NCBI GenBank assembly: GCA_017302855.1
Contig: JAFLBY010000001.1
Coordinates: 9,208 to 73,207, forward strand
Direction: 5' to 3'
From: Candidatus Kapaibacterium sp.
GTDB lineage: Bacteria > Bacteroidota > Ignavibacteria > Kapaibacteriales > UBA961
Length of the DNA: 64,000 nt
How positions within the stretch are numbered: the stretch's first letter is position 1; each line of letters starts with the position of its first letter. Under the pieces are notes generated by a model. It was not told the origin of the DNA and did no database searches. It was given only the letters and a program-made list of their open reading frames with translations. Positions 38,415 to 55,444 of this stretch are shown piece after piece. Made by a program: the position numbers and the translations under genes.

Positions 38415-38533
38415 CTATGTGAAGAACATACAAATGGAACTCTTGTGATAAACGCAAGGTGCGGTTATCAAATTTTTATAAAAAATGAAGAGTTTTTTTT
38501 TAACCAACTGAAAGGTATAGGTGATCTTTCCAA

Positions 38534-39994
38534 ATGGAAGGTGCGTTATTACTTCTCTACATTCTTTCCCTCACAATTTTGTTTGCATTCGGATTGCACG
38601 GTTTGGTGATGATTTACTATTATCACAAAACAGCAGGCAATGTCCGCAACACCCCTCCCCAACAGTTATCGGATGATTTGCCTGTGGTAACAGTGCAATT
38701 GCCGATGTATAATGAAGTCTATGTCGTAGAGCGTCTTGTGAGTGCTGTCTGCGATATACGCTATCCCAAAGACAAACTTGAGATTCAAGTTTTGGATGAT
38801 TCTACTGATGAAACGGTGGAAGTTACTCGTCGTTTGGTAGAAGAGTATGCGGCTCAGGGCTTCGACATTAAACATATTCATCGTATTGACAGAACAGGCT
38901 ACAAAGCCGGTGCTTTGAAGCATGGCTTGGCTATGGCTCGCGGTGAATTTGTTGCCATTTTCGATGCGGATTTTGTGCCAAAACCCGATTTTCTTGAAAT
39001 GACGGTGCCACATTTCCAAAACGATAATGTGGGAATGGTGCAAACACGTTGGGAGCATCTCAATGAAGATTATTCTTTCTTGACTCGGGCACAAGCTTTG
39101 GCTTTGGACGGTCATTTTGTTATTGAACAGCAAGTGCGCAATAAAGCAGGTTTCTTTATCAATTTTAATGGCACTGCCGGTATATGGCGCAAAAAAACTA
39201 TCGAAGATGCCGGTAATTGGCATTCCGATACTCTTGCCGAAGATCTTGACCTTAGTTACCGTGCCCAATTAAAAGGATGGAAATTTGTGTTTCTCAATGA
39301 TGTGACTTCTCCGGCTGAATTACCTGCCGACATCAATGCACTCAAAACACAACAATTCCGCTGGACAAAAGGGGCTGTGGAAACAGCAAAAAAACTCTTA
39401 CCCGCAGTATGGAAATCCGATATGCCTTTCAAGGTCAAAATGGAATGTACTGTCCATTTAACCAGCAATATTGTGTTTCCGTTTATTATTATGGTTGCCA
39501 TGCTCAATGTTCCCTTAGTAATAATCAAAAACAATGTGGCGGGCTATGATGCTTACTTTACTTTAATGTCTGTTTTTGTATTGGCTTCTATCAGTACATT
39601 CTTGTTTTATCTGTATGCTCAAAAAGCCATCCATTTGGATTGGCAGCGTCGTTTAATGTTATTCCCCGTTTTTATGGCAGGCAGTATGGGCTTTGCTGTC
39701 AATAATTCAAAAGCGGTTTTTGAAGCATTAACAGGAAAAAAATCGGAATTCAAACGTACTCCCAAATACAAAATCGTTACGAATAATGATGATTGGAAAA
39801 AGAAAAAATATGTTCAACGTAAAATTGGTGGCGGAGTAATTATCGAATTATTATTTACACTCTATTTTATTGGTGGAATTGCAACATCCGCAATGTATTT
39901 GGAAATTGCTGCTATTCCTTTCCAATTAATGTTTTTAACAGGATTTGGCACCGTTGGCGGCTTATCATTGCGCCATGCTCTTTCTCGTACATAA
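38534..39994 (+). CDS. GT2 processive beta-glycosyltransferase (cellulose-synthase superfamily)
   Basis: DDSTDET, FDADF, TED-like AEDLD and QQFRW (QxxRW) motifs; N- and C-terminal TM helices. Confidence 0.7.
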   Translation: MEGALLLLYILSLTILFAFGLHGLVMIYYYHKTAGNVRNTPPQQLSDDLPVVTVQLPMYNEVYVVERLVSAVCDIRYPKDKLEIQVLDDSTDETVEVTRRLVEEYAAQGFDIKHIHRIDRTGYKAGALKHGLAMARGEFVAIFDADFVPKPDFLEMTVPHFQNDNVGMVQTRWEHLNEDYSFLTRAQALALDGHFVIEQQVRNKAGFFINFNGTAGIWRKKTIEDAGNWHSDTLAEDLDLSYRAQLKGWKFVFLNDVTSPAELPADINALKTQQFRWTKGAVETAKKLLPAVWKSDMPFKVKMECTVHLTSNIVFPFIIMVAMLNVPLVIIKNNVAGYDAYFTLMSVFVLASISTFLFYLYAQKAIHLDWQRRLMLFPVFMAGSMGFAVNNSKAVFEALTGKKSEFKRTPKYKIVTNNDDWKKKKYVQRKIGGGVIIELLFTLYFIGGIATSAMYLEIAAIPFQLMFLTGFGTVGGLSLRHALSRT

Positions 39995-40030
39995 ATAGAG
40001 ATACTTGCCTATTTCTTCAGAAAAACTCTT

Positions 40031-40068
40031 GCTGCTTTTTGTGGCAAGAGTTTTTTTGTTTTTCTGCT
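40031..40068 (+). terminator. Rho-independent terminator after the GT2 gene
   Basis: ACTCTTGC-loop-GCAAGAGT followed by TTTTTTTGTTTTT. Confidence 0.45.
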
Positions 40069-40243
40069 TCATTATTTTCATTGTGATGATGCCATTTGTC
40101 GGGATGAAAAAATCCCGTCATTATGTCATCATACGAGAAAAAATACATCCACCCCGTCCTTCGGACACTCCCTCAAAACGGGAATTTTGAAATTCAGCGC
40201 GTCATGGAATCCCGCAGGGATGACATTATACTAGCAAATCTTT

Positions 40244-40273
40244 CCAAAAAACCTTCCCCTCCATCGGAGGGGT
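40244..40273 (-). terminator. Rho-independent terminator (minus strand) downstream of the CTD remnant and STAND gene
   Basis: CCCCTCC-gat-GGAGGGG hairpin followed on the minus strand by GGTTTTTTGG. Lies in a locally GC-rich segment. Confidence 0.4.
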
Positions 40274-40336
40274 GTCCGCAGGACGGGGTGGGTTCATTCC
40301 ATCAGACGCAGTCTGACGGGGTGGACGCATTTATCA

Positions 40337-40567
40337 CTACCTCACCACCATAAACAGAGCTTTTTGTCCTGTGGCGGGAATGCGTGCACAATACATACCT
40401 GTCTGCGATCTGCTTATGTCTATCGAATGTTCATATCCCTGATACATAAGCGAACCCTGCATATCGGCAATGAAGACCAAGGCATTATCTGTACCGGTAG
40501 GCGTGTGGTTGTGATGTGTTGGTATTTTAAACTTCTTGGTCATGGAGTTTGTTGGAATTAATTTCAA
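40337..40567 (-). pseudogene. Orphan T9SS C-terminal sorting-domain remnant (3' fragment of a disrupted secreted-protein gene)
   Basis: The 76-aa ORF ...ALVFIADMQGSLMYQGYEHSIDISRSQTGMYCARIPATGQKALFMVVR matches the T9SS CTD pattern. It has no upstream cargo domain, and its 5' end overlaps the STAND gene stop in another frame. Confidence 0.35.
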
Positions 40568-43500
40568 ACATCGATAACTCCAAGAAATTTATAAAACTTT
40601 CATAGAATGAATAGAAATTAGTTTCTATTTTATAATCATTTATAAGTTTCAGTGTGTTTCCGGGAAAAAAATACAAACTATGAAAATAGTTGATAGTGTT
40701 CACTTTTCCAACAATAGCATTAAATAAAATTGGTTTTATGCTTCTTTTAACTTCTTTTTTGGGAAACAACTGAAATAGTTTTAAATCCGACAACGAAGAG
40801 TGTAATCCATCAGAATAAGATGCTACTTCATCTGGCTTTAATTTCAGTTCGGAAATTATTTTTTTGTCATTTATAGTAAGTATTCCGTTGTTTAATCGTG
40901 ATTGACTATCTTGTCTGTATGAGTTGTTGTGATCTGAATATTCAGTATAAGGAATTCCAATGTTCTTAAGAGACTTTGTTTTTTTATTCCGTTTTGAAAT
41001 ACGAACTCTGAATTTGTTAACTTCTAATATGTCTCTAAACTGATTACATCTATTTGAACTGAGAATGTTTTGAATATCATTAAAATCTATTTGCCTATCA
41101 TATATGTTATGTTGAAGTAATCTTTCTATTGATAGATTAAAAATACTATCTGGAAAACAGTTAATATGATTTGTAGGTAAACTAAACCAAGATACTTCTA
41201 ATTTGTTAATATCAAAATACTTTACCAAGATGTCAATTATACTCGTGGAATGTTGTTCAATATATTCTTCTAAAAGATGACGTACTCCCTTTTCTGATAA
41301 AGTCTGAATAGATGCTATTAGTTTAATAGATTCTATTTCTTTAACAAGACCCTTTTCTTCAAAAACTGAAAGTATGGTGGGGATAAATAGAACAGAATAA
41401 TCCTTTCTTTGATAGTATTTTGTCCAAAAAGTAGAAATGCTCGAGATATCAATGGTTTTATTTAAATGCAAGTTCAGACGAATATAATTTAATATTTCAA
41501 TCCATAAGTCAAAACTACCCAATTGACTGTTTTTAATGATAAAGTCTGCTAGTGATAAATTTAAGTAATCGTTTGTTCTTGCAACATGGCCAAGTGCCAG
41601 TATGTTGCGTCTCGCATCTTTTAATATAGACTTTGCAAATGCAGCGGGAATACGTTTCTTTTCAAGAAATTCTCGTAAATATAATAAGGACTCTTCATCT
41701 TCAGTATAAAAGTATTTATTAATAGTCATTTTTAAGTCTAAATAATCAGATTGTAGTTTTTCGTGGATGAATAAATTTTCCAACACAAAGGTCATTTTTT
41801 CGACGAATTCATAGTTGTCGTTAGATTCTATCAAAGCTTCAATTTCTATATTAGATAGTGCAGATTTGTGTGCGTTAAAAAAGGTATCTTCTTTTGTTGT
41901 TTCGTCTAATAAATTTTCAAAAAAACTGTTTGTATTATAATGGTCATTACTAGAAAGATTAAGCAACAATGAGATATTCCCCGTTTTAATAAAGTAAAAC
42001 ATACCAAAAAGATAGTCTGAGCTTGTAAAGTCTTTCTCTGTATATCCATGAAATAACAATGATTTTATATAGGTGTATAAAAATTTATTGTTAGTTGAAA
42101 TATAATCCCTTGATATTATATTGATAATTAATGATAAATCATAATAATCTTTCACATCTAAATCATTGGGTGAAAGTTCAAACAATGATCCTCTAAGTTG
42201 TCCATAGAATGATTGGATAGCCTCAAAATCTACAGTACCACTAACAAGAACTTTAAACTCAGAAATGTTTGAGAATCTGAGAATGATTTCTCGTTTCATT
42301 TCCATATCTAGATAGAAGAAATCAAACCTTGTAAGAAATGCAACTTCTGAGTTAAGGATTGAGTTGTAAACAATCATTTTTACTGTCTTTTGTCGTTCAG
42401 AATAATCAATGTTTTGGTTACGTAAATAAGTATTAAAGCTGTCGTGCAATAAAGAAACTCTGTTTAGCTTCTTTTCAAATAAATAAGGGTACTCACTTAT
42501 AAATTCTGAAACACTAACTCCTAATTCTTTACCTAAAAATTTTTCTATTTCATGGTGCATGATAAAAGAACGACAACAAAGAAACAATGTCAATAAAGAT
42601 TTTGTGTTTACCTTGTCTTTAAAAATTTCATCATAATACTCGTCTATAGTCTTTAACGTATTTAATTCAGGTAGATTGTTGTGTTCTTTATAATGTTCTG
42701 CCAAATATTTGACTAAAATAGGATAACCATCTGTAATCGAATATATGCGACTACAAACATCGTAATCGGTAATGTGAAAAAGTTTATCAAGAACCTTTTT
42801 TGTTTGCTCCTTGTTCCAATTAATAAGTTCATGTTTACTCCACTCCCATTGATGTTTCAATGGTCTGGTTAAAACTATTGTTTTACACTTTGTTTGTAAT
42901 TTTTGGATAAAGTCAATGATTTTTTTTAACTCTTTGCTATCGTAGTTTTCAACGTGGTCAATCCCGTCAATTATGACTATTTTGTTTACCTCCCATAATT
43001 TTGATAAAACTTCATTCTCATTCCTGTTAACTTGATCATTAAACAGTTTCTTCGAAAAGTCAAAGATAAAATTTGAAAACTTTAGCCTTTGATTATACTC
43101 TTTATCTTGGCTTGAAATCCAAAATCTGTAAATTATATTGTTTGGATATTCTTGAGTCAGACTATTGACAAGATGGCTTTTGCCAACTCCAGGTTTGCCT
43201 TCTATTACTATAATATTTTCAACAAATAGATGATTTCTTCCGACATCAATTGTTTGTTCGGTCAAATTGGTATCGAAAACGAGAATTGTTGGCAAATCCT
43301 TTCTCGCTATTCTAAATTTCCGCTCATCTAAACATGAATTAAAAAATCTGTTTATAATAAGTTCCCTTTCTTGGTTCAAATTGTATAAATTGGAAATTCT
43401 CTCATCAACATTTTCTCTGTTTAAAGAAACAATGTAAACATTGTTTGAAATATATGCAGGAATTCCGAATATTTCACAATTTGGCGAAATCTCGATTTGT

Positions 43501-43781
43501 TTAAAAAATATAATATTAGTGAATTGTGACAATAAATGTTTTTTGTTTTTTATAATTACTGAGTTTTCTTTGAATCGAAGAGAGTTAAGAGAAATGTCAT
43601 CAATATCTTTAATCTGGATGCAAAATTTTTCGTTAGTAGATGTTACTATTAAATCATCAAAGTGATTGTTAGCGTTTACTTCCATTTCAATTGAATCAAT
43701 ACTACGTTCAACATCCATTTTTGCTAAAAACAAAGATGTTATTTGTTTTTGATATGTGTATCCTGTATAAGCGTTTTTCAT
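40527..43781 (-). CDS. STAND-class P-loop NTPase (NACHT/NB-ARC-like), Avs-like candidate antiviral sensor: N-terminal PD-(D/E)xK-like domain plus long C-terminal helical-repeat region
   Basis: Walker A GKPGVGKSHLVNSL, Walker B KIVIIDGIDHV and TIVLTRP motifs. ~190-aa N-terminal domain with FDDLIV...EKFCIQIK (D...QxK). ~700-aa alpha-helical C-terminal half. Confidence 0.7.
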   Translation of the reverse strand: MKNAYTGYTYQKQITSLFLAKMDVERSIDSIEMEVNANNHFDDLIVTSTNEKFCIQIKDIDDISLNSLRFKENSVIIKNKKHLLSQFTNIIFFKQIEISPNCEIFGIPAYISNNVYIVSLNRENVDERISNLYNLNQERELIINRFFNSCLDERKFRIARKDLPTILVFDTNLTEQTIDVGRNHLFVENIIVIEGKPGVGKSHLVNSLTQEYPNNIIYRFWISSQDKEYNQRLKFSNFIFDFSKKLFNDQVNRNENEVLSKLWEVNKIVIIDGIDHVENYDSKELKKIIDFIQKLQTKCKTIVLTRPLKHQWEWSKHELINWNKEQTKKVLDKLFHITDYDVCSRIYSITDGYPILVKYLAEHYKEHNNLPELNTLKTIDEYYDEIFKDKVNTKSLLTLFLCCRSFIMHHEIEKFLGKELGVSVSEFISEYPYLFEKKLNRVSLLHDSFNTYLRNQNIDYSERQKTVKMIVYNSILNSEVAFLTRFDFFYLDMEMKREIILRFSNISEFKVLVSGTVDFEAIQSFYGQLRGSLFELSPNDLDVKDYYDLSLIINIISRDYISTNNKFLYTYIKSLLFHGYTEKDFTSSDYLFGMFYFIKTGNISLLLNLSSNDHYNTNSFFENLLDETTKEDTFFNAHKSALSNIEIEALIESNDNYEFVEKMTFVLENLFIHEKLQSDYLDLKMTINKYFYTEDEESLLYLREFLEKKRIPAAFAKSILKDARRNILALGHVARTNDYLNLSLADFIIKNSQLGSFDLWIEILNYIRLNLHLNKTIDISSISTFWTKYYQRKDYSVLFIPTILSVFEEKGLVKEIESIKLIASIQTLSEKGVRHLLEEYIEQHSTSIIDILVKYFDINKLEVSWFSLPTNHINCFPDSIFNLSIERLLQHNIYDRQIDFNDIQNILSSNRCNQFRDILEVNKFRVRISKRNKKTKSLKNIGIPYTEYSDHNNSYRQDSQSRLNNGILTINDKKIISELKLKPDEVASYSDGLHSSLSDLKLFQLFPKKEVKRSIKPILFNAIVGKVNTINYFHSLYFFPGNTLKLINDYKIETNFYSFYESFINFLELSMFEINSNKLHDQEV

Positions 43782-44061
43782 TAATTACAAATAATATTAA
43801 CTTCTTTCATTACTTAAATTTCTTCTTCGGTCAGTTCGTAAAGTTTCTGAACTAATGTGTCAATTTGGTCTGTTTAAGTCATCTGTGCTTCCGATGGCGG
43901 TAGATCTCACACAGCGAAGTAAACCACCGTTTGTTTCTCCAAAACTACAAAACTTTGAAAACTCAGACAAATATGAAGTTCTCATATTTCATTATGATAT
44001 AGCGTATCCTTGCTTTGCAATTCAATGACTGTCACCCTTTTCATACAAGAGGAGTGTTGAA

Positions 44062-44084
44062 TAAAAAAAGGGGCTTGCGCCCCT
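44062..44084 (-). terminator. Rho-independent terminator of the sugar-nucleotide operon
   Basis: Minus strand GGGGCGCAAGCCCC followed by TTTTTTT, immediately after the gmd stop. Confidence 0.55.
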
Positions 44085-44087
44085 TGT

Positions 44088-45233
44088 TTATCCTGCATCA
44101 CCTATAATATCTTTGGCGGTGCCATGTTCTGTCCAATCAAACCCTTTATTCTTAATGGCATCAATACCGCGCCGCGATGTACTAAGTCCGCAACTCATCA
44201 TATCATGGTCGGTCATAATTTCCACTAATTCCTTAAATGTGACACGCGGTTGCCATCCTAAAATTCTTTGCGCTTTGGAAATATCCGCTTGCAGAAAATC
44301 CACTTCGGTCGGGCGAAAATATCGCGGGTCAATTTCCACGATAACTGTGCCCGGAGCTATAGAATACTGTGGGGCGGCACTGCGTACAATTCCTTGTTCG
44401 TGAATACCTTCTCCCCTCCACTCTATTTCCACACCGACATAAGCAAAAGCCATTTCCACAAATTCACGGACGGTATGGCTTTCACCTGTCCCGACAGTAA
44501 AATCATCGGGCGTATCATGGGCAAGAATTAAGTGCATCATTTCCACATATTCCGGTGCAAAACCCCAATCACGTTTGGCATCAAGATTTCCCAAATAAAG
44601 CCGATTTTGTTTACCCGAAAGAATATGCGCTACGGCACGAGTAATTTTTCTTGTTACGAAAATTTCGCCGCGCCGCGGACTTTCATGATTGAATAAAATA
44701 CCATTGGAACAAAAAAGATTATAGCCCTCACGATAATTAACAACTAACCAATAAGCATAGAGTTTGGCAGCGGCATAAGGGCTTTGCGGTTGGAATGGTG
44801 TGGTTTCCGATTGTGGCGGCATTGCCGAGCCGAATAATTCGGAGGTTGATGCCTGATATAATTTGGTACGAATACCGCTGCGGCGAATTGCTTCCAAAAT
44901 ACGTGTTGTGCCCAACCCCGTGACATTACCCGTATATTCCGGCATATCGAAAGAAACACGCACATGGCTTTGTGCCCCCAGATGATACACTTCATCGGGT
45001 TGGATATTATACATTATTTCGGTCATAATGCCCGGATCGGATAAATCACCATAATGAAGTCGCAGCCGCGCGCCTTTTTCATGCGGATCAAGGTAAATAT
45101 GATCAATGCGATGGGTATTAAATGTACTGGCGCGGCGAATAATGCCATGCACCTCATAGCCCTTAGCAAGAAGAAATTCCGCCAAATAAGAGCCGTCTTG
45201 TCCCGTAATACCCGTAATTAATGCTTTTTGCAT
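44088..45233 (-). CDS. gmd: GDP-mannose 4,6-dehydratase
   Basis: [34 protein letters not shown]; full-length Gmd, 381 aa. Confidence 0.9.
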
Positions 45234-45235
45234 GA

Positions 45236-46627
45236 TTATTTTTTACCTTCACCCAATAAACGTACTTTCTTTTTCGCGCCTTTTACTTTTTTACATGCAT
45301 TGCGTGTGTCAATCACGACTTTACTGTGTTTGACAATCATCTCATAATCGAAAGAAGTATGGTCCGTGGTGATGACGGCAATATCGAATTTTTCAAGCAT
45401 TTGCGGCGTGAGTTTTTTCTCCGATTTTACTTTTTTGCCATGAATTTCTGTTTCGGGAATATATGGATCATAATAGCTGATATTTTTCATACCGTCTTCA
45501 AGTAATAATTCCGCAACTTTTAAGGCGGGAGAATGGCGTAAATCATCCACATCGCGCTTAAATGCCATGCCGAGTAAAAGAATTTTTGCTTTTTCCATTG
45601 TCACAGGTTGCCGTGCAATTTCACGCTCAATCATGGAACGCACATAAAAAGGCATGGACTCATTCACTTCGGCAGCAAGTGTGATAAAGTTGGTCACAAA
45701 ATCCACTTCCCTTGCCATCCATGATAAATAATAGGGGTCAATAAGAATACAATGCCCGCCAATGCCCGGTCCCGGGAAAAATGGCATAAAACCAAAAGGT
45801 TTGGTAGAAGCGGCTTCCACTACTTCCCATATATTTACACCAATCCTATCACATAATTGTGCTAATTCATTCACCAAAGCAATATTCACACTGCGGAAAA
45901 TATTTTCAAGTAATTTTTCCATTTCAGCAACTTCGGGAGTGCTGACAGCAATGACTTTATCAATAATAAGTTCATTGACAGCCACAGACAAAGCAGTGCA
46001 TGATGCGCTTACGCCACCCACAACAATAGGAGTATTACCCGTATGCCATGTTGTATTGCCCGGATCAATTCTTTCCGGTGAAAAAGCCAAATAATAATCT
46101 TTGCCTGCTTTTTTGCCCATGCGTTCCAAAATCGGCTGCACATATTTTGTCGTTGTACCCGGAAACGTGGTGCTTTTTAGAATAACAATATGTCCGTCGC
46201 GCAAATATTTGGCAACTTCTTCGGTTGAATGAACAATATGGGAAATATCCGGTTCTTTATTGGGGGTAAATGGCGTGGGTACGCATATATAGATGACATC
46301 ACATTCCCCGCAAACAGAAAAATCCGTCGTTGCGCTTAATGTCTTATTGGCAATGCACTGCGCCACATTCTCGGAGCTGATGTCTTGGATATAATTGTGC
46401 CCTTGTTGCAAAGCGGAGATTTTACGATTGTCAATATCAATACCGATGGTGCGAATGCCTTTCATCGCAAATTCTACGGCAAGTGGCAAGCCGACATATC
46501 CCAAACCAACCACACCGATGACGATGTCTTGGGAGCGAATACGAGAAAGAAGTGTGGTGGGGTCTGAGGAATACACCATTGCTTCGGAGGTGCTTTTCTT
46601 GAGTGAAGAGTGAGTTTTCTTTGCCAT
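45236..46627 (-). CDS. Nucleotide-sugar dehydrogenase (UDP-glucose/GDP-mannose dehydrogenase family)
   Basis: [22 protein letters not shown]-binding start and catalytic Cys region GGHCI. The ORF track extends to 46714; the internal Met at 46627 or 46579 is more plausible. Confidence 0.8.
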
Positions 46628-46974
46628 TGTGAGTATGAGTAATTGAATAAAATTGCTGTTGTAATAACAAGTGCCGTGCCATTGACGATGCACTATGACG
46701 AAACTTACAGTCAAAATTACTTAATTGCTTTGATTGGTTTGATAGAAAAGAGGTAATGGACAGGTACGAAGTCGCCAAAAATGCTGCAGAAAGTAATTGT
46801 GATGAAGAATGTGATTGATTTGAGTCAGTGTTCTTTCTTTGCTAATACGCAGATGTAAGATAATGCAGAAAAAGAAAGCACTTCCGTCCCGTCGCCACCC
46901 CTTCTAAAGGTATATTAGCGACGACGGGTTGACGCTTGTCATATATGTATCACATGATCTGTTTGGTCAATAGA

Positions 46975-47910
46975 CTATAGCGATTGAGATTTCAGACTTT
47001 CAATCATCGTCCTGATACCTTGTTTCGGAGCTGTGGCAGTGATGCCGAAACGTTGCTCAAATTTGGAACTGTCGAACATATAATCTTGCTCATATTGATA
47101 CATCATCTCAGGAAACTCTTTCAAAGAAGGAATAAATATCCCAAGCATTTTTATCATCCATAATGGCAAGTGTTGAATATCGGGTTTGACTTGCAGTTCT
47201 TCCGCTATAAGGTGAATCCATTGCAAAGTAGTTAAACATTCTTTTGTTGTCGGCACATGCCATACTTGATGAAAAGCATCGGGAGTATTGCCAAGTAAAG
47301 CTGTTGCCTTTGCCGCATCGGGCGTATAAGTAAAGGTATGGATTTTATTGACATTGCCAAAAGACTGTGCCTTTTTCCCTTTCAGCAAATTATCAACCAC
47401 CATAATACGAAGAGCACTGGTTTTATTGTCGGGTCCATAAAAATCGGCAGAGCGAGCAATTAATGCATTAAGAGAATTGTTCTCTACCTCTTTCATAATC
47501 ATTTCATGAATCCGCTGCCGTATCATACCTTTTTTGCTTGGAGCATTGATGGGTGATGTTTCCACCATGTGCGGTATAGCGGATGAGTCATACATATAGA
47601 CATTATCAAAAAACACCAGCTTTGCATTATGGTTTTTGCATGCCTGAATAACTGCTTGCATAAATGGAACCCATATTTGTTCCCACACATGCAATCTATA
47701 CTCAAAACCAACAGTTACATACACAATCTCACTGCCTGCCACTGCTGAGTCAATACTGTTTGTATCATGAAGATCGGCGGGATATAATTCATCCGAGTCA
47801 TTTACTTTTTGGGGCTTTCTGCTTACTAATCTGATATGGGGAGTGTAATGAGATAACTCTTTTGCTAAAGGTATGCCGATAGCACCGCCTGCACCGAGTA
47901 TTGTTTGCAT
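46975..47910 (-). CDS. NAD-dependent epimerase/dehydratase-family (SDR) protein
   Basis: MQTILGAGGAIGIPLAKEL Rossmann start; 311 aa. Confidence 0.6.
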   Translation of the reverse strand: MQTILGAGGAIGIPLAKELSHYTPHIRLVSRKPQKVNDSDELYPADLHDTNSIDSAVAGSEIVYVTVGFEYRLHVWEQIWVPFMQAVIQACKNHNAKLVFFDNVYMYDSSAIPHMVETSPINAPSKKGMIRQRIHEMIMKEVENNSLNALIARSADFYGPDNKTSALRIMVVDNLLKGKKAQSFGNVNKIHTFTYTPDAAKATALLGNTPDAFHQVWHVPTTKECLTTLQWIHLIAEELQVKPDIQHLPLWMIKMLGIFIPSLKEFPEMMYQYEQDYMFDSSKFEQRFGITATAPKQGIRTMIESLKSQSL

Positions 47911-47969
47911 ATATAGTCCTTACTATGTGAAATTATTAACTGTCAGAATCCCGAAAAGATATATAATCC

Positions 47970-49034
47970 TTAGGCTTCAATCAATTCATTTACTTCTTCA
48001 TTCATTACTTCTTCATTCATTACTTCTTCATTCATTACTTCTTCATATACACAACTGTTTACCAAAGCATTTGCAATGTGCCACATTAAGACAGGTGGAA
48101 CAGCATTGCCAATTGCTCTGTATTGTCTATTCTCTGAAACACTGTCTAACGTAAATGTTAGCGGAAAAGATTGAATGTTTGCTGCTTCTCTTGGTGTAAA
48201 TCTTCTGTAACGTTCACCAACCATTAATACAGGGTCCGTTCCATTCAAACTGACTTTTGCAAGATGTGCACTGATTGTGTTACAGGGCTGTTCTAAATCT
48301 TGTACTCGTCCTTTGTTCATCTTTTCTCTTACTCGCAACATTCCATCAATGGCTCTTTGGCTGAAAAACCATTTTTCATCTTTGTGAGCTTCTTTATCAA
48401 TAACCTGTTTTAATTTTACTTTTGAACCGTTCAATGTGTTTGGTCTTGGAAATCTAAAATTAAAATAATCGTCAAAATCTCTGAAGCCAACAATAAAAAT
48501 GCGTTCGCGTTTTTGAGGAATACCAAATTCTGACGCATTTAACAGCTTAAAATGAATGTGATAACCTGCTTTCTCAAATTCGTTTACAATCATAGGGAGT
48601 GCTTTTCCTTTGTTTGCAGAAAGTAAACCTTTAACATTTTCTCCAATGAAAAAACGTGGCTGTTTTTCTTTCAGAATTTTTACCATCTCAAAAAACAATT
48701 TTCCTCTATCGTCTTTGTAGCCTAATCTGGGTGGGTTCTGTGCACTGATAGAAAATGATTGACAAGGAAAACCACCTAACAGAATATCGTGGTCAGGAAC
48801 TTCGTTTGGTATGATAGCTCTAACGTCTTTTATCTCACATTTATGCTCAAAATTATCGTTGTAAATTTTTGTTGAGTAACTATCGTTATCGACGGCATAC
48901 ACAACCTCAAAAGGTAAGGCAGCGTAATGATTGTCAAGAAAATCGAAATTTCCTTGAATACCTAAATCCATTCCTCCACAACCACAGAAAAGAGATGAGA
49001 CCTTTAATTTGTTATTTCCAGCAGTTTGTGCCAT
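47970..49034 (-). CDS. DNA (cytosine-5)-methyltransferase (M2 of the RM operon) with a C-terminal EEVMN peptide-repeat tail
   Basis: Motif I LFCGCGGMDLG, motif IV GGFPCQSFS, ENV motif. C-terminus (EEVMN)x3-4. Confidence 0.85.
   Translation of the reverse strand: MAQTAGNNKLKVSSLFCGCGGMDLGIQGNFDFLDNHYAALPFEVVYAVDNDSYSTKIYNDNFEHKCEIKDVRAIIPNEVPDHDILLGGFPCQSFSISAQNPPRLGYKDDRGKLFFEMVKILKEKQPRFFIGENVKGLLSANKGKALPMIVNEFEKAGYHIHFKLLNASEFGIPQKRERIFIVGFRDFDDYFNFRFPRPNTLNGSKVKLKQVIDKEAHKDEKWFFSQRAIDGMLRVREKMNKGRVQDLEQPCNTISAHLAKVSLNGTDPVLMVGERYRRFTPREAANIQSFPLTFTLDSVSENRQYRAIGNAVPPVLMWHIANALVNSCVYEEVMNEEVMNEEVMNEEVNELIEA
47985..48050. repeat. 15-bp tandem repeat (ttcattacttcttca, 3 perfect copies plus 1 variant) at the 3' end of the methyltransferase gene
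   Basis: Seen directly; in-frame, 5 aa per unit. Confidence 0.6.
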
Positions 49035-50446
49035 TGTCCTGATATTTTAGAAAATTCAACAACTAAGTTTTTATCAACTTTTAAATTACCTAATTTGAAT
49101 TGTTTAAATGGGTTTTGAATAATAAAGATGTTCTTGCTCTTATCGTTAATTACCAAGTAATAGACAAAATAACTGTCCCCTAATGTTTCTGCACTGTCCC
49201 ATTCGTTAGGCGTGAGTTTGAAACGATTATTGTTAATTGCTTTTCGTGATTTAGTTGTTTTTACTTCAATATATCGTTTTTTTTGAGGTATTTCGATACT
49301 TTGTAGGTCATATCCAACACCAAGAGGTGTCGGGATTTTGTTTATTAAGTGTTGACGGTTTGAACCACCTCTTGTTCTCAAATATTCATGTGCTAAAATT
49401 AACGTTTCACCATAATCCCCAAATATTTTTGTAGGTACTTTTCTATCTCCTTTGATGCGTGAGTAATACTCTTGAATAAGAGTAGATATGTTCTGTACTT
49501 CTTGTTCTTCTAAATGAGGGGCAAACGCTTCAATATTATCAAAGTTATTTACATAATCAAACCAAAGCTCTTCTAGTTTTCCAATTTCAGAATTTTTTGT
49601 TTCTTCTTCTAAATTGTAATATCTGTCATACTCACCAAACCATGTATTGTTTTGCAAGTGAAAGTTAATTGCTTCTATGTTTTTGTGATTCAGATAATAA
49701 TAATAACCTGTTCCTTTATGGTGCAAAAGATTGGCTAAAACCATGTAATCCAAAATGTCGCCAGCGTACCGATTAGTATCACCTTTTGATGGAAATTCGC
49801 CTGTTCGTTCGTTTCTTAATGCTTCGTAATTATATTCGTATTCCACTTTGTCTTTTCTGTTCTCTAGAATGAGATTTACAACTTCGTTTGCTTGCCTTTT
49901 TCCTGTTGTAACTCGAAGGTCGAAGTAAGCGCATTGCGTGAGTTCTTCTACTGTTAAGCTAAATGGTTTTCCTGTAATTTTTTCTCCCTCAACAAATAAA
50001 TTAAGTATGAATTGACAAGGTCTAAATTTTATACCAGCTTCAATTTGCTTAATTGTATTTTGAGATTTAATGTGTCCACCTGGGTATTGAAATGAAAACA
50101 AAAAGTAATTAAAAAATTCATCCAAATATTGATTGTTTGCAAGCCTCTTTGCTGTTAAGCCGGGTTCGGAGAAACCGTTCTTTTCTTGAATAAAACCAAA
50201 CAACGCTGAAATTTCAGTCCGCCAATTATCTATTGTCTTTTGTGCTGCTGTTGTGTTTTTTTTAAAACCAAACAATACCTTGTTTAATTCATTTTTAAAA
50301 TTGTTTTTTGATAAAACGGGCATTTCTGAAATTGTTGTTGCTACATACAATAAAACTTCTTCTACGTCATTTTTGAAACGTGGTCTTACATGATGTAATC
50401 TAAAAAAATACTCATCAGGTATTCTGTATGATTTTATTCTGCTCAT
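49004..50446 (-). CDS. Putative type II restriction endonuclease (C-terminal DUF3883-like PD-(D/E)xK domain)
   Basis: 480 aa. C-terminal ...GYDLQ...KKRYIEVKTTKS...FKLTPNEW...YFVYYLV is a D...EVK nuclease core. Sits between two m5C methyltransferase genes with overlapping start/stop. Confidence 0.5.
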   Translation of the reverse strand: MSRIKSYRIPDEYFFRLHHVRPRFKNDVEEVLLYVATTISEMPVLSKNNFKNELNKVLFGFKKNTTAAQKTIDNWRTEISALFGFIQEKNGFSEPGLTAKRLANNQYLDEFFNYFLFSFQYPGGHIKSQNTIKQIEAGIKFRPCQFILNLFVEGEKITGKPFSLTVEELTQCAYFDLRVTTGKRQANEVVNLILENRKDKVEYEYNYEALRNERTGEFPSKGDTNRYAGDILDYMVLANLLHHKGTGYYYYLNHKNIEAINFHLQNNTWFGEYDRYYNLEEETKNSEIGKLEELWFDYVNNFDNIEAFAPHLEEQEVQNISTLIQEYYSRIKGDRKVPTKIFGDYGETLILAHEYLRTRGGSNRQHLINKIPTPLGVGYDLQSIEIPQKKRYIEVKTTKSRKAINNNRFKLTPNEWDSAETLGDSYFVYYLVINDKSKNIFIIQNPFKQFKLGNLKVDKNLVVEFSKISGQWHKLLEITN

Positions 50447-51480
50447 AAGTATTTCATAATTTCATTTGCTAACACAGCTGCTAATATTGGAGGAACAGCA
50501 TTGCCTACCTGTTTGTATTGGCTCGTTTTACTTCCTAAAAAAATGAATGAATCTGGAAAGGATTGTATTCTCGCACTTTCTCTAACAGTAGGCACACGAT
50601 TGTATTTGTAATGAAAATGATGTCTGTGTCCTGTGTCAATAGTAAAACTTGGCTTCTTGCTGTTTAGTCTCGTCCAAGCAATATTTACATTCCTTGTTTT
50701 TCGTAATTCTTTAGGCAAGTCTTTATAGTTTCCGCCATCGGGAACTAATGAAATAATATGTGTTGTTTGCTCACTATGGTTAGTTGTTTCGTGATTGTAA
50801 ATACCCTTTGACCCTTCTCTAATTAATCTTTGATAATGAGATTTAGGTTTAGTTGTATATTTTGTCCCGTTTTCTAACGAATTTTTAGGCAAATCTGAAA
50901 TTGCATCTTTCGTATTTATAGGGGTTTTAGTTGTTGGTTCTGGGAAAACAAACTCTTTGTTGCTCTTTGTTCCAATAAAGAAAGCACGTTTTCTATTCTG
51001 CGGAACTCCATAATCAGAGGCTAATAAAATTTTGTAAACTACGGTGTAACCAAGTTTTTCAAAATCACTGAGAATTGTCTCTTTTACAATACCTTTTCCC
51101 ATAGAAATAATGTTTGGCACATTTTCCATTACAAACGCCTTAGGCTTGTAAAAACTAACAAAACTCAAAAATGATTTGTAAAGTTGATTGCGCTCGTCAT
51201 CAATTATTCTTTTTCCTGCAATAGAAAAACCTTGACAAGGAGGACCTCCAATAATCACATCTATACTTTTTATTCCTGTTTTTTTTGAAATTTCTTTCGC
51301 TGTCTCCGTAAATAAATCGGCTACAATTCCTTTTGCATTTTTGTGAGTGTTTTCAAAAGTTACAATCGCATCTTTCCAATTGTCAATTCCCAAAAGTACA
51401 TCATAGCCAGCTTCGATGAATCCATAAGAAAGTCCACCGCAGCCACAAAACAAGTCTATTACTGTTGGCTTCTTTTTCAT
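50443..51480 (-). CDS. DNA (cytosine-5)-methyltransferase (M1 of the RM operon)
   Basis: IDLFCGCGGLSYGF, GGPPCQGFSIAGKR and ENVPN motifs. Confidence 0.85.
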   Translation of the reverse strand: MKKKPTVIDLFCGCGGLSYGFIEAGYDVLLGIDNWKDAIVTFENTHKNAKGIVADLFTETAKEISKKTGIKSIDVIIGGPPCQGFSIAGKRIIDDERNQLYKSFLSFVSFYKPKAFVMENVPNIISMGKGIVKETILSDFEKLGYTVVYKILLASDYGVPQNRKRAFFIGTKSNKEFVFPEPTTKTPINTKDAISDLPKNSLENGTKYTTKPKSHYQRLIREGSKGIYNHETTNHSEQTTHIISLVPDGGNYKDLPKELRKTRNVNIAWTRLNSKKPSFTIDTGHRHHFHYKYNRVPTVRESARIQSFPDSFIFLGSKTSQYKQVGNAVPPILAAVLANEIMKYL

Positions 51481-51499
51481 TTTCTAACTTGATAATGTC

Positions 51500-51808
51500 T
51501 CATTTTGTGTTCATATTCTTCAAATAGTTTACCTTTTCTTCTGCAACCACCAATGTTTCGGTAGGGCAGTTATAAGCATACATCTTTTTTGCAAATTGAT
51601 CTCCAAAATATTCAATCTTTAATCTTTCAATATCAAGACTAAAAACTATTGCTAATTTGGTTAATCGCTTTTCGTCAAACTCTCTCTTCCCATTTTCGAT
51701 TTTGCTAAGATTTGCAGAATCAAGGTCAAGACGGAATGCAAGTTGCGTTAAAGTCAAGCCATTGTCTGTTCTTAGTTTCTTGATGTATTCACCAAAAGTT
51801 GCCTTCAT
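51500..51808 (-). CDS. XRE-family HTH regulator, candidate RM controller (C) protein
   Basis: FGEYIKKLRTDNGLTLTQLAFRLDLDSANLSKIENGKR HTH_3. First gene of the C-M-R-M operon. Confidence 0.6.
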   Translation of the reverse strand: MKATFGEYIKKLRTDNGLTLTQLAFRLDLDSANLSKIENGKREFDEKRLTKLAIVFSLDIERLKIEYFGDQFAKKMYAYNCPTETLVVAEEKVNYLKNMNTK

Positions 51809-51826
51809 AAGATTATACCTCGAAAC

Positions 51827-51843
51827 TTGTCAATCATTGACAA
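51827..51843. promoter_or_regulatory. 17-bp palindrome TTGTCAAT-C-ATTGACAA 19 bp upstream of the controller gene (candidate C-box operator)
   Basis: Seen directly; perfect inverted repeat around a single central base. Confidence 0.45.
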
Positions 51844-52002
51844 ATTTAACAATAGTTTTTGGTTAAACAATCTCTATTGATTCTGCTCTCCTGTGTTCTA
51901 TCACCTATGTTTGTCTAACTGTGCTGTTCTTTCGGATGACCAATCTATTCATATTATACCCCTCAATAACCATTTGCCCCAGAAAGCGGCTCATTTCTAT
52001 TA

Positions 52003-52096
52003 TCCATCGGAAGAAATAGGGCTTTGTTTCGGTCATCTTCGCCGCCAATCGGAAGAAAAGTAGTTTCGTTTCGGTCATCTTCGCCGCCCATCGCCT
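52003..52096. repeat. Imperfect ~44-bp direct repeat x2 (core tttcggtcatcttcgccgcc)
   Basis: Seen directly. Confidence 0.5.
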
Positions 52097-52242
52097 TGTA
52101 TGAATCAGATTCTCTTTTGTATAGGGTAAAAAGGGGCTGAGATATATCGAAAATGCAATGAGATGAGGCAAAGTTTTGGCTTTATGAACCGAAAACTGCC
52201 TGTTTTGCCCTAAAAACGCGGAAAGTTGTATAAGAAATGGCG

Positions 52243-52557
52243 GTTTCCTGCTCAATTCAAGTGGTTTCCTGTTCAATTCAAGTGGTTTCCTGTTCAATTC
52301 AAGTGGTTTCCTGTTCAATTCAAGTGGTTTCCTGTTCAATTCAAGTGGTTTCCTGTTCAATTCAAGTGGTTTCTTGCTCAATTCAAGTGGTTTCCTGTTC
52401 AATTCAAGTGGTTTCTTGCTCAATTCAAGTGGTTTCCTGTTCAATTCAAGTGGTTTCCTGTTCAATTCAAGTGGTTTCCTGTTCAATTTAAGTGGTTTCC
52501 TGTTCAATTTAAGTGGTTTCCTGTTCAATTTAAGTGGTTTCCTGTTCAATTTAATGA
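52243..52557. repeat. Tandem array of about 14.5 copies of a 21-bp unit (ggtttcctgttcaattcaagt) with a few point variants (cttgctc; caattta)
   Basis: Seen directly. The array is head-to-tail with no spacers, so it is not a CRISPR array. Confidence 0.9.
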
Positions 52558-52796
52558 GGTTTTGCAGCATCCGATGAAGGTTTTGATACATTTCATTCGC
52601 TCTTTATGGTATATGGTCGAGGTTTTTGTGTATCCGAGAGGGGCTTCAGGGCATTTGTCTGCGTTTTTTATGAATATGATTAAGAAGATTCCTCACACAA
52701 TGCGGTTTTTTGTGCATTTGAGCGGAAGGATGAGCCATTCGTTGCAAGAGTTTGTGCATCCGAAGCAATCGTTATTGCTTGTTTTGATGTGTTTTG

Positions 52797-53720
52797 TTAT
52801 GATTGCTGCGTATTGAGTATAGCCCTAAGAGAGTCATGTTGTTGTTGGGAAATCATTGCATAGCTGTATGCGATGGTCGCGGTGGCATTGCTGAAGTATT
52901 TGTATGAAGTCTGAATGTCGGTAGTATCTGCCAGAGCATCAATGTGATGACTGACGGTATGGGTATCGCCGCGAGAGATGGGTCCGGTCAAGGGAGGAAT
53001 GTCCGCGTCGAGTGTGTTGAGGCAATTTTCTACTGCGGTGAGAATGATGGGTGGTAAAAAGAGTTCGGGTTCTATGCCTGCTTGGTTTGCTAATGATTTT
53101 GCATGGGTTATTGCTGCCACAAGAAAGTTCGATGCCGCCACTGCCGCGGCGTGGTATTGTGCTTTGTGTTGGCGGGTATAGTCGCTAAGAATGATGGGAT
53201 TGCCGCCCAAAGCCATGACGAAAGCGGAAAGTAAGTCTTCGCTGTCGCTCATGCAATCAATGCCCCATGCGATGTCACGCAAGACGGTATCGGTTTCGCC
53301 CGTGAAGGTTTGGAAGGGATGAATGGCAGCACAGATCGCGCCGTTCATCATACATTCGGTTAAGGGTTCTATGCTGTATGCGCCGGAACAATGCACGATG
53401 GTACATCCGGCGAGAGATGCTCCAAAATGCGCTGCCACATCGGCAGACACTGTCTCAATGGCACTATCAGGCACGGCAAGGATAAGGAGTTGGGGCGGAT
53501 GGGGTATATAGTCAAGTTCTTGGAGTAAGGGGATTTCCGTTGGCAATATGGAGGTAAGTTGCTCCAAACGCGCACCGGAACGAATCAGCATCCATTCAAG
53601 TTTGTGCATTTTTGCAGTTGCCATTGCTAATGTTGTCCCCAATTTTCCACCACCGATAATGCCGACGGTCGGTACTGTGTCAGCGGAGCCAAAGACCCCA
53701 CCCCCTGCATAGTGTGCCAT
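52797..53720 (-). CDS. Rossmann-like / DUF2520-domain protein (predicted NAD(P)-dependent oxidoreductase)
   Basis: VGIIGGGKLGTTLA dinucleotide-binding start; 307 aa. Confidence 0.45.
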   Translation of the reverse strand: MAHYAGGGVFGSADTVPTVGIIGGGKLGTTLAMATAKMHKLEWMLIRSGARLEQLTSILPTEIPLLQELDYIPHPPQLLILAVPDSAIETVSADVAAHFGASLAGCTIVHCSGAYSIEPLTECMMNGAICAAIHPFQTFTGETDTVLRDIAWGIDCMSDSEDLLSAFVMALGGNPIILSDYTRQHKAQYHAAAVAASNFLVAAITHAKSLANQAGIEPELFLPPIILTAVENCLNTLDADIPPLTGPISRGDTHTVSHHIDALADTTDIQTSYKYFSNATATIAYSYAMISQQQHDSLRAILNTQQS

Positions 53721-53723
53721 AAC

Positions 53724-55181
53724 TTACCTTTCGTTTACTTCAAGTGTATATCCTTCTTTTGTATCTTTCAGTGTATATCCTTTTTCTGCAATGGCAGCAC
53801 GCAAACTGTCGGCTTCGGCAAAGTTTTTGTCTTTTTTTGCTTGGAGTCTGCGTTCGGCAAGTGCAATAATCTCATCGGGAATGATGATATGTTCTTGCGG
53901 CTTTGCTTCTATGTTCCACACGCCGAATATGTCATTGATAGTACGAAATTCCTCAATAAGAGCCAATTTGCTTTCGGCTGTCAATGTGGCGGGATTGGTA
54001 TTGTTGATAAAGCTGAAGAGAATCTCAAGTGCTTTGGGTGTGTGAAGATTATCAGCCAAAGCGGTTGCCACATCGTGGAATACAGTTGCCGAAGCATCGC
54101 CATTGATGCGGGTGTCGAAGAGCGCATAGACAAAATCTTGGACACGTTTTCTGGCTTTTTGCACAGCATCCAAACCGCTGAATGTGAAGTTTATCACAGA
54201 GGAATAATGTCCCGAGAGCATGAGGAAGCGAATATCGAGCGGATCATACCCTTTGTCGGTGATGTCACGCAAGGTATAGAAGTTGCCGAGCGATTTACTC
54301 ATTTTTTTGCCTTCTACTTCCAAGAATTCATTGTGGCACCAATAGTTGGCAGTGTCCAAACCATAGCCGGCTTTGCTTTGGGCTATCTCATCTTCATGAT
54401 GGGGAAATCGCAAGTCCACGCCGCCTGTGTGAATATCTAAGGGTAATCCGAGAATGTCTTGCCCCATAGCGGAACATTCGATATGCCATCCGGGACGACC
54501 GGGGAGATTGTAACCATTATAGGGGAAATCCCAGTATGGTTCATTGTTCTTACGTGCTTTCCAAAGGACAAAATCACTGACACTTTCTCTGTCATACTCA
54601 TCGGCATCAATGCGCACTCCGGCTTTGAAATGCTCTGTATCAACGGTAAAGAGTTTGCCATAATGCTCTTGTGCCATCCAATCGCCCAAGGCGAAATAGA
54701 CATTGCCCTCAGAAACATAGCCATAGCCATTGTCAATGATATTGCGTATGAGTTGTTGCATCGGCTCAATATAATCCGTTGCGCGGGGCATGGTATGGAA
54801 ATGCGCCGTTTGAATACCGACGCTTTGTATGTCTTCAATGAATTTTTGAGCAAAATATTCCGTAAAGAGTCGAAGATTATGGTTGGGGTCATCGGATTGT
54901 ATTCCCATGTCATTTAGCCATTCTTTACTGCCTATTGCGCTGTCACGTATTGTTTTGTCATCAATATCGGTGATATTCATAACCCATTGTACATCGTACT
55001 TGCCCACAATGCGCAAGACTCTTTGCAGCAGATCGGAAAATAAGAATGAGCGAATATTGCCGATGTGAATATAATTATAGACCGTGGGTCCGCATGTATA
55101 TACTTTTACTGTTGAGCCGCCGGAAACGGATTGGAAATCTTCTATTGTTTTGGATAAAGTGTTAAATAATCGTATGGTCAT
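53724..55181 (-). CDS. cysS: Cysteine--tRNA ligase
   Basis: CGPTVYNYIHIGNIRSF (HIGH region) and KMSKSLGN motif; 485 aa. Confidence 0.9.
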   Translation of the reverse strand: MTIRLFNTLSKTIEDFQSVSGGSTVKVYTCGPTVYNYIHIGNIRSFLFSDLLQRVLRIVGKYDVQWVMNITDIDDKTIRDSAIGSKEWLNDMGIQSDDPNHNLRLFTEYFAQKFIEDIQSVGIQTAHFHTMPRATDYIEPMQQLIRNIIDNGYGYVSEGNVYFALGDWMAQEHYGKLFTVDTEHFKAGVRIDADEYDRESVSDFVLWKARKNNEPYWDFPYNGYNLPGRPGWHIECSAMGQDILGLPLDIHTGGVDLRFPHHEDEIAQSKAGYGLDTANYWCHNEFLEVEGKKMSKSLGNFYTLRDITDKGYDPLDIRFLMLSGHYSSVINFTFSGLDAVQKARKRVQDFVYALFDTRINGDASATVFHDVATALADNLHTPKALEILFSFINNTNPATLTAESKLALIEEFRTINDIFGVWNIEAKPQEHIIIPDEIIALAERRLQAKKDKNFAEADSLRAAIAEKGYTLKDTKEGYTLEVNER

Positions 55182-55207
55182 GATAATGTTGAATAGTATC
55201 GAGAAGT

Positions 55208-55444
55208 TTAATGAATGATGAATGAGAAAACGAATGATTGTGTTGTATTGGTAATGCGTATAAAGTAAAGTCCGGAGCTAAGTCCCGCAGTGCTGATAGT
55301 TGTGACAGTGTCCGTACATCGTGTAGAAGACAGTGAATTACCGACAAGTGAATATAATTCTGCCTTCATGCCTTGTGCGCCATGAAGATTGAGATTATTG
55401 TTGATATAGTCATAGGCAATGCTTATGTCTTGAGTGGGAATATC
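55208..55444 (-). pseudogene. Out-of-frame T9SS C-terminal sorting domain belonging to the upstream metalloprotease (frameshift or error at ~55445)
   Basis: My own translation of the adjacent minus-strand frame gives DALLFPLEDIPTQDISIAYDYINNNLNLHGAQGMKAELYSLVGNSLSSTRCTDTVTTISTAGLSSGLYFIRITNTTQSFVFSFIIH, a good T9SS CTD match ending at the cysS start. Confidence 0.5.

Follow-up and report, generated by a model that had tools for sequence, protein, structure and literature searches.

We analysed a 64,000-nucleotide stretch of contig JAFLBY010000001.1 from Candidatus Kapaibacterium sp. (hereafter the window), in which a gene for a large STAND NTPase-type protein, three nucleotide-sugar genes and a restriction-modification (R-M) operon lie between conserved genes. 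The original prediction had described all of these as a single 12.5-kb defence island; the features that it listed were all present in the sequence, close to where it had placed them. From comparison with contigs of the same species, the proposed island is very probably ordinary chromosome that forms a core defence hotspot, with several small slots varying independently between conserved housekeeping genes. From left to right, the locus contains the following features (window coordinates, strand in brackets where assigned).

38534-39994 (+), glycosyltransferase family 2 gene (GT2), left core flank
40018-40058 (+), intrinsic terminator of GT2 from the terminator scan, left edge of the conserved core
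40067-40338, slot 0, GC-rich nested-hairpin element, recognized from inverted repeats, RNA folding and a 20-mer search
40337-40497 (-), pseudogene remnant of a type IX secretion system (T9SS) cargo gene, last 53 codons and stop, recognized from a sub-threshold Por_Secre_tail match and nucleotide identity to contig L010
40498-40523, linker of 26 bp defined by junction alignment, present in STAND and Shedu haplotypes and not in the intact cargo gene
40524-43802 (-), slot 1 cassette with the STAND gene at 40527-43781 (1084 aa)
43803-44062, leader of 260 bp, present in STAND and Shedu haplotypes and without counterpart in the cargo haplotype
44068-44085 (-), intrinsic terminator of the gmd-ugd-epimerase operon, core boundary common to all haplotypes
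44088-45233 (-), gmd (TIGR01472, E=9e-161)
45236-46714 (-), nucleotide-sugar dehydrogenase gene ugd (Pfam, NCBIfam)
46975-47910 (-), gene for an epimerase of the short-chain dehydrogenase/reductase family (Pfam, NCBIfam)
47933-51933 (-), slot 2 insert of 4001 bp, which substitutes for 87 bp of R-M-less strains
47970-49034 (-), M2, 5-methylcytosine (5mC) methyltransferase gene (PF00145)
49004-50446 (-), R gene, BpuJI_N and NOV_C domains (PF11564, PF13020)
50443-51480 (-), M1, 5mC methyltransferase gene (PF00145)
51500-51808 (-), C gene, HTH_3 controller (HTH_3 E=1e-10; PADLOC Control_protein E=4e-7)
51823-51847, candidate C-box palindrome of 12+12 nt, 15 nt upstream of the C start codon
51934-52227, native intergenic DNA present in all strains (79-92% identity); includes a two-copy 42-bp repeat at 52006-52093
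52228-52745, indel of 518 bp with a variable-number tandem repeat (VNTR), from Tandem Repeats Finder (TRF) and blastn; a 21-bp array and degenerate repeats
52797-53720, DUF2520 gene, right core flank
53721-53741, slot 3, empty in the window, bounded exactly by the stop codon of cysS and the start codon of DUF2520
53724-55181, cysS, right core flank

The relatives were about 40 conspecific contigs (species of the metagenome-assembled genome (MAG) UBA2373) from independent ENA, JGI, NCBI and Logan assemblies. They were gathered through exact matches to the GT2, DUF2520, gmd, epimerase and R proteins, and were compared by blastn with window positions 38000-56000 as the query. Long contigs of 45-737 kb (L001, L093-L096 and L099; L numbers are our handles for contigs and loci) span the entire locus. 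The epimerase of the window is 99% identical to that of the MAG 'Ignavibacteria bacterium UBA2373'. At 79 loci with epimerase homologs at 75% identity or less, no neighbouring gene was held in common with the window, and thus the comparison within the species alone is informative.

GT2, gmd-ugd-epimerase, DUF2520 and cysS were 97-100% identical across all contigs, which agrees with the core flanks originally assigned to both sides (GT2 on the left, DUF2520 and cysS on the right). On the left, homology to all strains extends to 40066, where the blastn alignments of L004, L010 and L094 have their breakpoints. The core block 44063-47932 (the terminator, gmd, ugd, the epimerase gene and 22 bp upstream) was found in every conspecific contig at 98-100% identity; the strong terminator originally noted beside the sugar genes is the intrinsic one at 44068-44085 on the minus strand, directly after gmd. 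Against a gene background GC of 0.398 +/- 0.033 (27 window genes), the GC was 0.284 in the STAND gene (0.28-0.29 across the gene), 0.32-0.36 in the R-M genes and 0.32 in a Shedu gene that occupies slot 1 in other strains. The cargo gene (0.415) and gmd, ugd and the epimerase gene (0.40-0.45) were native-like, and the GC at third codon positions (GC3) of the sugar genes was also native. The compositional check thus marked the STAND and R-M genes, which are strain-variable, as foreign, but not the sugar genes. The DUF2520 gene (52797-53720) has a GC of 0.505 and a GC3 of 0.506, about 3 sd above the gene background, yet it is kept in all strains.

These data bear directly on the proposal that the STAND gene, the sugar genes, the R-M operon and the repeats were acquired en bloc, as one 12.5-kb island, into a secreted-protein gene. 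The envelope 40.07-52.75 kb does hold all of the strain-variable DNA. However, gmd, ugd and the epimerase gene, with native GC and GC3, were found at 98-100% identity in every conspecific contig, whether the STAND or R-M genes were present or not. The cassettes of STAND (40524-43802) and R-M (47933-51933) were found in every combination, each as an indel of its own, and the DNA at 51934-52227, within the repeat block that had been taken as the right end of the island, is also present in R-M-less strains. The epimerase-ugd-gmd operon belongs to no insert. To the left of ugd, the sister lineage L122 differs in gene order, and ugd-gmd may have moved with the slot at a deeper divergence. The single-island claim is highly improbable in the light of the within-species data. 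An unrelated 191-aa gene and a gene for a methyl-accepting chemotaxis protein (MCP) stand in place of the epimerase gene to the left of ugd in L122, and 46715-46974 is therefore a synteny breakpoint between lineages.

Slot 1 was found in three states, which were resolved to base-exact junctions. In L093, L095, L096, L098 and L010, an intact cargo gene of the BNR/sortilin type (F510_1955-like, 793/797 aa) lies directly between GT2 and gmd. Positions 40339-40497 of the window match the final 159 bp of the cargo gene of L010 with 98.7% nucleotide identity, and 52 of 53 amino acids are identical. The intact gene in these strains thus confirms the claim that the C-terminal domain (CTD) fragment is what remains, at the 3' end, of a gene for a secreted protein after replacement of the 5' part of that gene. 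The open reading frame (ORF) originally described, 40337-40567 on the minus strand (76 codons; Por_Secre_tail E=1.8e-3, 19 bits, below the cutoff of 27), does overlap the 3' end of the STAND gene, but only 40337-40497 derive from the cargo gene, the remainder being the 26-bp linker and the STAND 3' end. The sorting-domain score of the intact 797-aa cargo protein is 22.1 bits against a cutoff of 23, and its Pfam match is rated 'weak'; the scores of remnant and intact protein are both just sub-threshold, and both matches are located at the expected C-terminal position. The refuting condition stated with the original prediction gave a mixed outcome: some relatives do have the intact gene where the window has the remnant, but what they lack is the STAND cassette only and not the whole block.

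The STAND state was found in the window, L102 and L013; L102, recovered in 17 samples, agrees with the window at every base over 7552 bp. In L001, L002, L094, L097, L099, L100 and L103-106, slot 1 encodes a Shedu nuclease of 418 aa (PADLOC SduA, E=1e-49). Since the linker and the leader are common to both haplotypes, the STAND and Shedu genes are exchanged almost ORF-for-ORF within one promoter context. The 260-bp leader probably holds the promoter. It terminates in TAATGAAAGA, which contains the Shedu start codon in the other strains and here begins an upstream ORF of 9 codons, 21 nt before the STAND ATG. Neither the 26-bp linker nor the 260-bp leader occurred beyond this locus among the 255 loci fetched. 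A 53-aa leader ORF was considered as a gene or regulator and rejected, for it is annotated in Shedu strains but frameshifted in the window, and it had no homologs beyond the locus.

The sister lineage L122 shows 86-88% DNA identity to the window in ugd-gmd and STAND. Its gene order starts with ugd and gmd, which precede an MmeI-type (Type IIG/IIL) R-M fusion; after this come a STAND gene of 84% identity and a CTD remnant that is decayed and frameshifted. The fusion gene (1454 aa, 3621-7985) sits in the leader, at the position equivalent to 43880/43893 of the window. It is thus inferred that the replacement of the cargo gene by STAND is old or has crossed lineages, and that a further system was taken up at the site. 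In this reading, the gene of a T9SS-secreted BNR/sortilin-type protein was the ancestral occupant of slot 1. In one lineage, the 5' 2.2 kb of this gene was replaced by the AT-rich, horizontally acquired STAND gene, and in other strains a Shedu ORF occupies the identical place, within the same 260-bp leader and 26-bp trailer. Because Shedu is an allelic occupant, the position itself argues that slot 1 is a defence slot.

The STAND protein has the predicted architecture of a putative immune sensor. Its N-terminus (aa 1 to about 170) is a Cap4-like PD-(D/E)xK nuclease with invariant D43, Q56 and K58, followed by a P-loop NTPase with Walker A at G195-S202 and Walker B at D272/D275, and by an alpha-helical sensor (aa ~340-1084) predicted from the structure model. 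In an alignment of 58 homologs, the Walker A sequence GKPGVGKS, the Walker B sequence DGxDH and the N-terminal GYxYQ...D43...Q56-x-K58 motif were invariant. Pfam matches were sub-threshold for Cap4_nuclease in 5 of 9 STAND homologs and for NACHT, AAA_16 and nSTAND3 in the STAND protein itself. The AlphaFold (AF2) model had a pLDDT of 86.3 and a pTM of 0.84. When this model was searched with Foldseek, the top three PDB matches were Avs3 chains A and B and Avs4 (E=2.9e-10 to 1.9e-7), followed by the plant NLR RPP1, MalT and ORC/Cdc6 (E about 1e-5 to 1e-4). Of these, Avs3, Avs4, RPP1 and MalT are themselves STAND proteins. Residues ~340-1084 were modelled as mostly alpha-helical with high pLDDT, and the Foldseek alignment to Avs3 was full-length with a TM-score of just 0.17.

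The family gave 638 scored matches, in which the full ~1080 aa are conserved at 44-84% identity. The hosts include Flavobacterium, Pedobacter, Arenibacter, Formosa and many MAGs, and are essentially only Bacteroidota-type genomes; no match to the STAND protein was found among the plasmids of PLSDB. Source annotations of the relatives are mostly 'hypothetical' or 'NACHT domain-containing', and some are 'AAA family ATPase'. The homologs adjoin SIR2-HerA, Upx-like, AbiEii, ParDE, SLFN-like helicase and MmeI-type R-M genes, tyrosine integrases and IS21, and a few are located in predicted viral or prophage contigs. A conserved partner gene was sought and rejected, as the genes of 340-366 aa directly upstream of STAND in L126, L249 and L250 are mutually unrelated and without relation to the window.

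A housekeeping or regulatory STAND/AAA+ protein, MalT-like or ORC/Cdc6-like, would be the alternative to an immune sensor. The cores of MalT, ORC/Cdc6 and plant NLRs are also among the Foldseek matches (E about 1e-5 to 1e-4), the protein had no PADLOC match and the source annotations are generic. On the other hand, the gene is strain-variable, very AT-rich and allelic with Shedu, at its N-terminus stands a Cap4-type nuclease, whose catalytic residues are invariant, in place of a DNA-binding output, the top structural matches are Avs3 and Avs4, and its homologs lie in defence or mobile islands of unrelated Bacteroidota and also in a few predicted viral or prophage contigs. A housekeeping role is thus unlikely. 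The STAND protein is better interpreted as a putative Avs-like immune sensor that combines a STAND NTPase with a Cap4-type nuclease and a predicted helical sensor. If it works like Avs3 and Avs7 (PMC13581612), the helical C-terminal sensor would bind a phage protein and thereby lift autoinhibition, ATP-dependent oligomerisation would follow, and the Cap4-type nuclease would then cut DNA and abort the infection.

In slot 2, the C-M-R-M operon was complete as predicted, with a controller (C, HTH_3), a 5mC methyltransferase, the R protein (BpuJI_N and NOV_C) and a second 5mC methyltransferase. The R protein matched PF11564 (BpuJI_N) with E=2.4e-114 and 381.7 bits (cutoff 25) and PF13020 (NOV_C) with E=7.6e-13, and a phmmer comparison with the N-terminal domain (NTD) of BpuJI in the PDB (5hlt/2vla) gave E=5e-15. 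The two methyltransferases flanking R matched PF00145 with E=1e-76 and E=2e-74, and PADLOC assigned REase_II, MTase_II and Control_protein in this slot. In PLSDB, the R protein had only two distant matches, at 36% identity, and plasmid carriage was considered and rejected for the STAND and R-M genes. The palindrome at 51823-51847 and the HTH_3 gene fit control by a C protein, for which the palindrome would be the operator. The operon would thus encode a C-protein-controlled, Type IIS-like R-M system, in which a single protein recognizes an asymmetric site and cuts the DNA, and each strand of the site is modified by its own 5mC methyltransferase. Since the insert removed the native 87-bp region upstream of the epimerase gene, the sugar operon may be read through from the R-M operon.

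The edge of the R-M insert (47933-48019) was found with STAND (L102), with Shedu (L103, L105, L106) and with the cargo-type junction (L107-109), and R-M-less contigs likewise carried STAND (L013), Shedu (L001) or the cargo gene (L093). Thus, slots 1 and 2 assort independently, because the R-M operon can be present or absent with each state of slot 1. We considered whether the haplotypes could be artefacts of assembly or binning, i.e. chimeric metagenome contigs. The comparators are all metagenomic, and many short contigs end at the tandem repeats, namely 47984-48046 and the array of 21-mers in the VNTR indel; the R-M contigs from short-read assemblies all stop at these two flanking repeats. 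Each haplotype, however, was recovered repeatedly and independently from different projects and assemblers, including the 45-737 kb contigs that span the locus, the 7552 bp of L102 identical to the window were obtained from 17 samples, and the junctions were base-identical across independent contigs. An artefactual origin is therefore barely credible. The repeat at 47984-48046 is an in-frame 15-bp, four-copy tandem repeat that encodes the extreme C-terminal residues of the second methyltransferase, (EEVMN)x3-4, and every short-read contig of this locus stops within it.

Slot 3, at the junction of DUF2520 and cysS, is occupied in other strains. L011 and L012 carry Vsr and HNH genes there (in L011, Vsr, HNH_2 and a 47-aa ORF at 8480-10010), and L099 carries Vsr, a Bse634I-like restriction endonuclease, a 5mC methyltransferase and DUF6471 (2880-6010). 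The DUF2520 gene of L099 is cut short to 216 aa. A duplication of about 18 bp of the cysS 3' end (TTACCTTTCGTTTA...) flanks the inserts of both kinds. Different systems thus occur at fixed positions: STAND, Shedu or the cargo gene in slot 1 (with the MmeI-type R-M in L122), R-M or nothing in slot 2, and Vsr sets or nothing in slot 3.

As the original prediction had noted, no integrase or transposase is present in the 64-kb window, and no tRNA or Rfam family was detected in it. No att sites were found, nor were target-site duplications or terminal, inverted or direct repeats at the junctions of slots 1 and 2. The alleles have common flanks and assort independently. Given this lack of recombinase genes, tRNA and duplications, the simplest route is a rare illegitimate insertion, after which the alleles most likely passed between strains as the conserved flanking genes recombined homologously. 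The same has been described for integrase-free core defence hotspots.

A dedicated, site-directed exchange of cassettes was weighed as an alternative, in which the leader, the trailer and the duplicated cysS end would be docking sites for a recombinase encoded elsewhere. The Shedu and STAND genes are swapped near ORF-for-ORF between identical flanks, two different R-M cassettes in slot 3 carry the same ~18-bp flanking duplication, and the hairpin-rich repeat adjoins slot 1. But there is no recombinase within 64 kb, the flanks of slot 1 occur at no other place among the 255 loci fetched, the junctions of slots 1 and 2 are without inverted or direct repeats, and the 'socket' contains just two cassette types. 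Moreover, at its end the common flank shares the microhomology ATGAAA with both start codons, as would suit an ordinary illegitimate or microhomology-mediated event whose product then spread by homologous exchange. A dedicated exchange system thus has a low probability. The same low weight is given to a broader speculation, in which slot 1 would be a fixed 'expression socket' made of the leader and the trailer on the CTD remnant, its ORF-for-ORF swap would be performed by a dedicated integrase-independent mechanism, the hairpin repeat and the cysS duplication would belong to the same machinery, and the ~1080-aa Cap4-STAND proteins would be an uncharacterised Avs family with its own phage trigger.

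Several points weigh against the reading of the locus as a defence hotspot with independent slots and an Avs-like sensor. The comparators are metagenome contigs or MAGs throughout, and the linkage over the two assembly-breaking tandem repeats was inferred from overlapping contig ends, the window being the sole assembly that reads through them. The STAND protein had no PADLOC v2.0 family match at E<=1e-3 and lies below every curated Pfam and NCBIfam cutoff. In the global Foldseek comparison with Avs3 and Avs4, its TM-scores are just 0.14-0.17, a low range that a flexible multidomain protein would be expected to give, and its sensor may for this reason be unrelated to those of Avs3 and Avs4. The proposed defence role is drawn from the fold, the architecture and the position in the genome. 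The kinship of the R protein with BpuJI is remote (E=5e-15). CCCGT is not depleted in the window (55 observed against 51.7 expected), and its avoidance was rejected as an indicator of the specificity of R, being uninformative for a self-methylating host. The ORF-exact swap of Shedu and STAND within common flanks is unusually tidy for illegitimate recombination, and a site-directed process is conceivable since the slot 3 inserts carry the ~18-bp flanking duplication.

The locally GC-rich segment to the left of the remnant had been counted as island DNA. It is instead a copy of a dispersed small palindromic repeat (slot 0). Its predicted RNA fold has a minimum free energy of -115.6 kcal/mol (z=-8.8), and no Rfam family matched it at the gathering threshold, with chance-level matches only at E<=1; an RNA gene or riboswitch was accordingly rejected for this segment. 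A core 20-mer is located at 40149-40168 (+) and 40272-40291 (-) in the window and recurs across more than 120 metagenome contigs that range in GC from 28% to 67%. Its exact conservation across such different genomes could reflect a miniature inverted-repeat transposable element or repetitive extragenic palindrome (MITE/REP-like), or a conserved protein or RNA target. The double-hairpin unit of about 42-45 nt reads CCACCCCGTCCT[T/G]CGGACA-CCCCTCC-(variable loop)-GGAGGGG, and at loci L127-L206 it occurs in 1-9 copies per contig, sometimes in tandem with a period of 42 or 45 bp. Five copies of CCCGT/ACGGG, the site of the prototype BpuJI, lie within 210 bp of the hairpin element (40114-40320). 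In L094 (12896-13318), L004 (11628-12050) and L010 (7013-7192), slot 0 contains instead a truncated DUF1016_N / PDC-S02 gene. This fragment (PDC-S02 is a PADLOC candidate system with a YhcG-like nuclease) is a decayed earlier occupant of the zone between GT2 and the CTD.

The repeat block on the right is present as described, but its length is about 0.8 kb (51934-52745) rather than about 1 kb. As an end of the proposed island it fails, since 51934-52227 are found in R-M-less strains as well and the 21-bp array varies in copy number on its own. The array (GGTTTCCTGTTCAATTCAAGT) extends over 52242-52551 with 14.8 units (15 copies here) and 96% matches by TRF. Among strains it has 0, 15, 18 or 19 copies, and the indel is absent in 7 of the strains examined. 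It is open in 4 of 6 frames, and its period corresponds to about two helical turns. A 228-aa ORF over the array was considered as a repeat protein, (PLELNRK)n, and rejected, as the ORF of other strains stops straight after the array; the unit was not found in viral contigs. The array was read as a non-coding VNTR.

Elsewhere in the window, a T9SS sorting domain is clearly recognized (Por_Secre_tail E=1.4e-11) in a BspA-type leucine-rich-repeat protein of 1289 aa. For this protein, a flagellin and an MCP chemoreceptor the coordinates, given together, are 22171-26040, 1293-2231 and 18244-19674, all on the minus strand. The presence of flagellin, an MCP chemoreceptor and T9SS cargo in one window fits Ignavibacteria over classical Bacteroidia.

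The locus resolves the turnover of defence genes to the base in an uncultured non-model lineage, with an ancestral state, two immune genes that replace it and independent R-M cassettes nearby. The STAND family, which has more than 600 detectable relatives and which PADLOC v2 misses, is a strong candidate for an Avs-type antiviral sensor because of its fold, the identity of its effector and its allelism with Shedu. It may be of use for the annotation of defence systems in Bacteroidota and is a candidate for trigger screens.

In comparison with known systems, the STAND protein resembles SeAvs3 (PDB 8dgc) and SeAvs7 (PMC13581612) in that a single gene encodes an N-terminal Cap4-type PD-(D/E)xK nuclease, a STAND NTPase and, as predicted here, a large helical C-terminal sensor. 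Unlike these, it has no sequence-level match to the PADLOC Avs models; its 1084 aa are about half the size of SeAvs3 (the chains of 8dgc have ~2000 residues), and its family is essentially confined to Bacteroidota-type genomes. Shedu (SduA, DUF4263) shares the exact slot 1 position and the leader with STAND, but in sister strains and not in the window. The R-M operon resembles that of BpuJI of Bacillus pumilus, in which a 5mC methyltransferase gene lies on either side of the R gene (PMC1874659; PDB 2vla, 5hlt). The R protein here likewise has a BpuJI_N recognition domain and a C-terminal AHJR/NOV_C-type nuclease, and the M-R-M layout is identical, with the relation at the distant level of the phmmer match to the BpuJI NTD. 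The operon here has an upstream C gene with a putative palindromic operator.

The core defence hotspots (cDHS) of Pseudomonas aeruginosa and the integrase-free pan-genome hotspots of E. coli (PMC10250203, PMC10121019) are of the same kind as this locus, with fixed positions, core flanks, varying defence systems (here Shedu, the Avs-like STAND and R-M) and no mobile-element genes. Unlike in those hotspots, there are three very small slots here (1.3-4 kb, one system each) instead of a single large one, and they are interleaved with the sugar operon, DUF2520 and cysS. One of them arose by the loss of most of a T9SS cargo gene, which other strains have kept intact, and the host is an uncultured Ignavibacteria-like lineage. 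The arrangement is thus a known kind of hotspot, which adds to known hotspot biology and does not change it.

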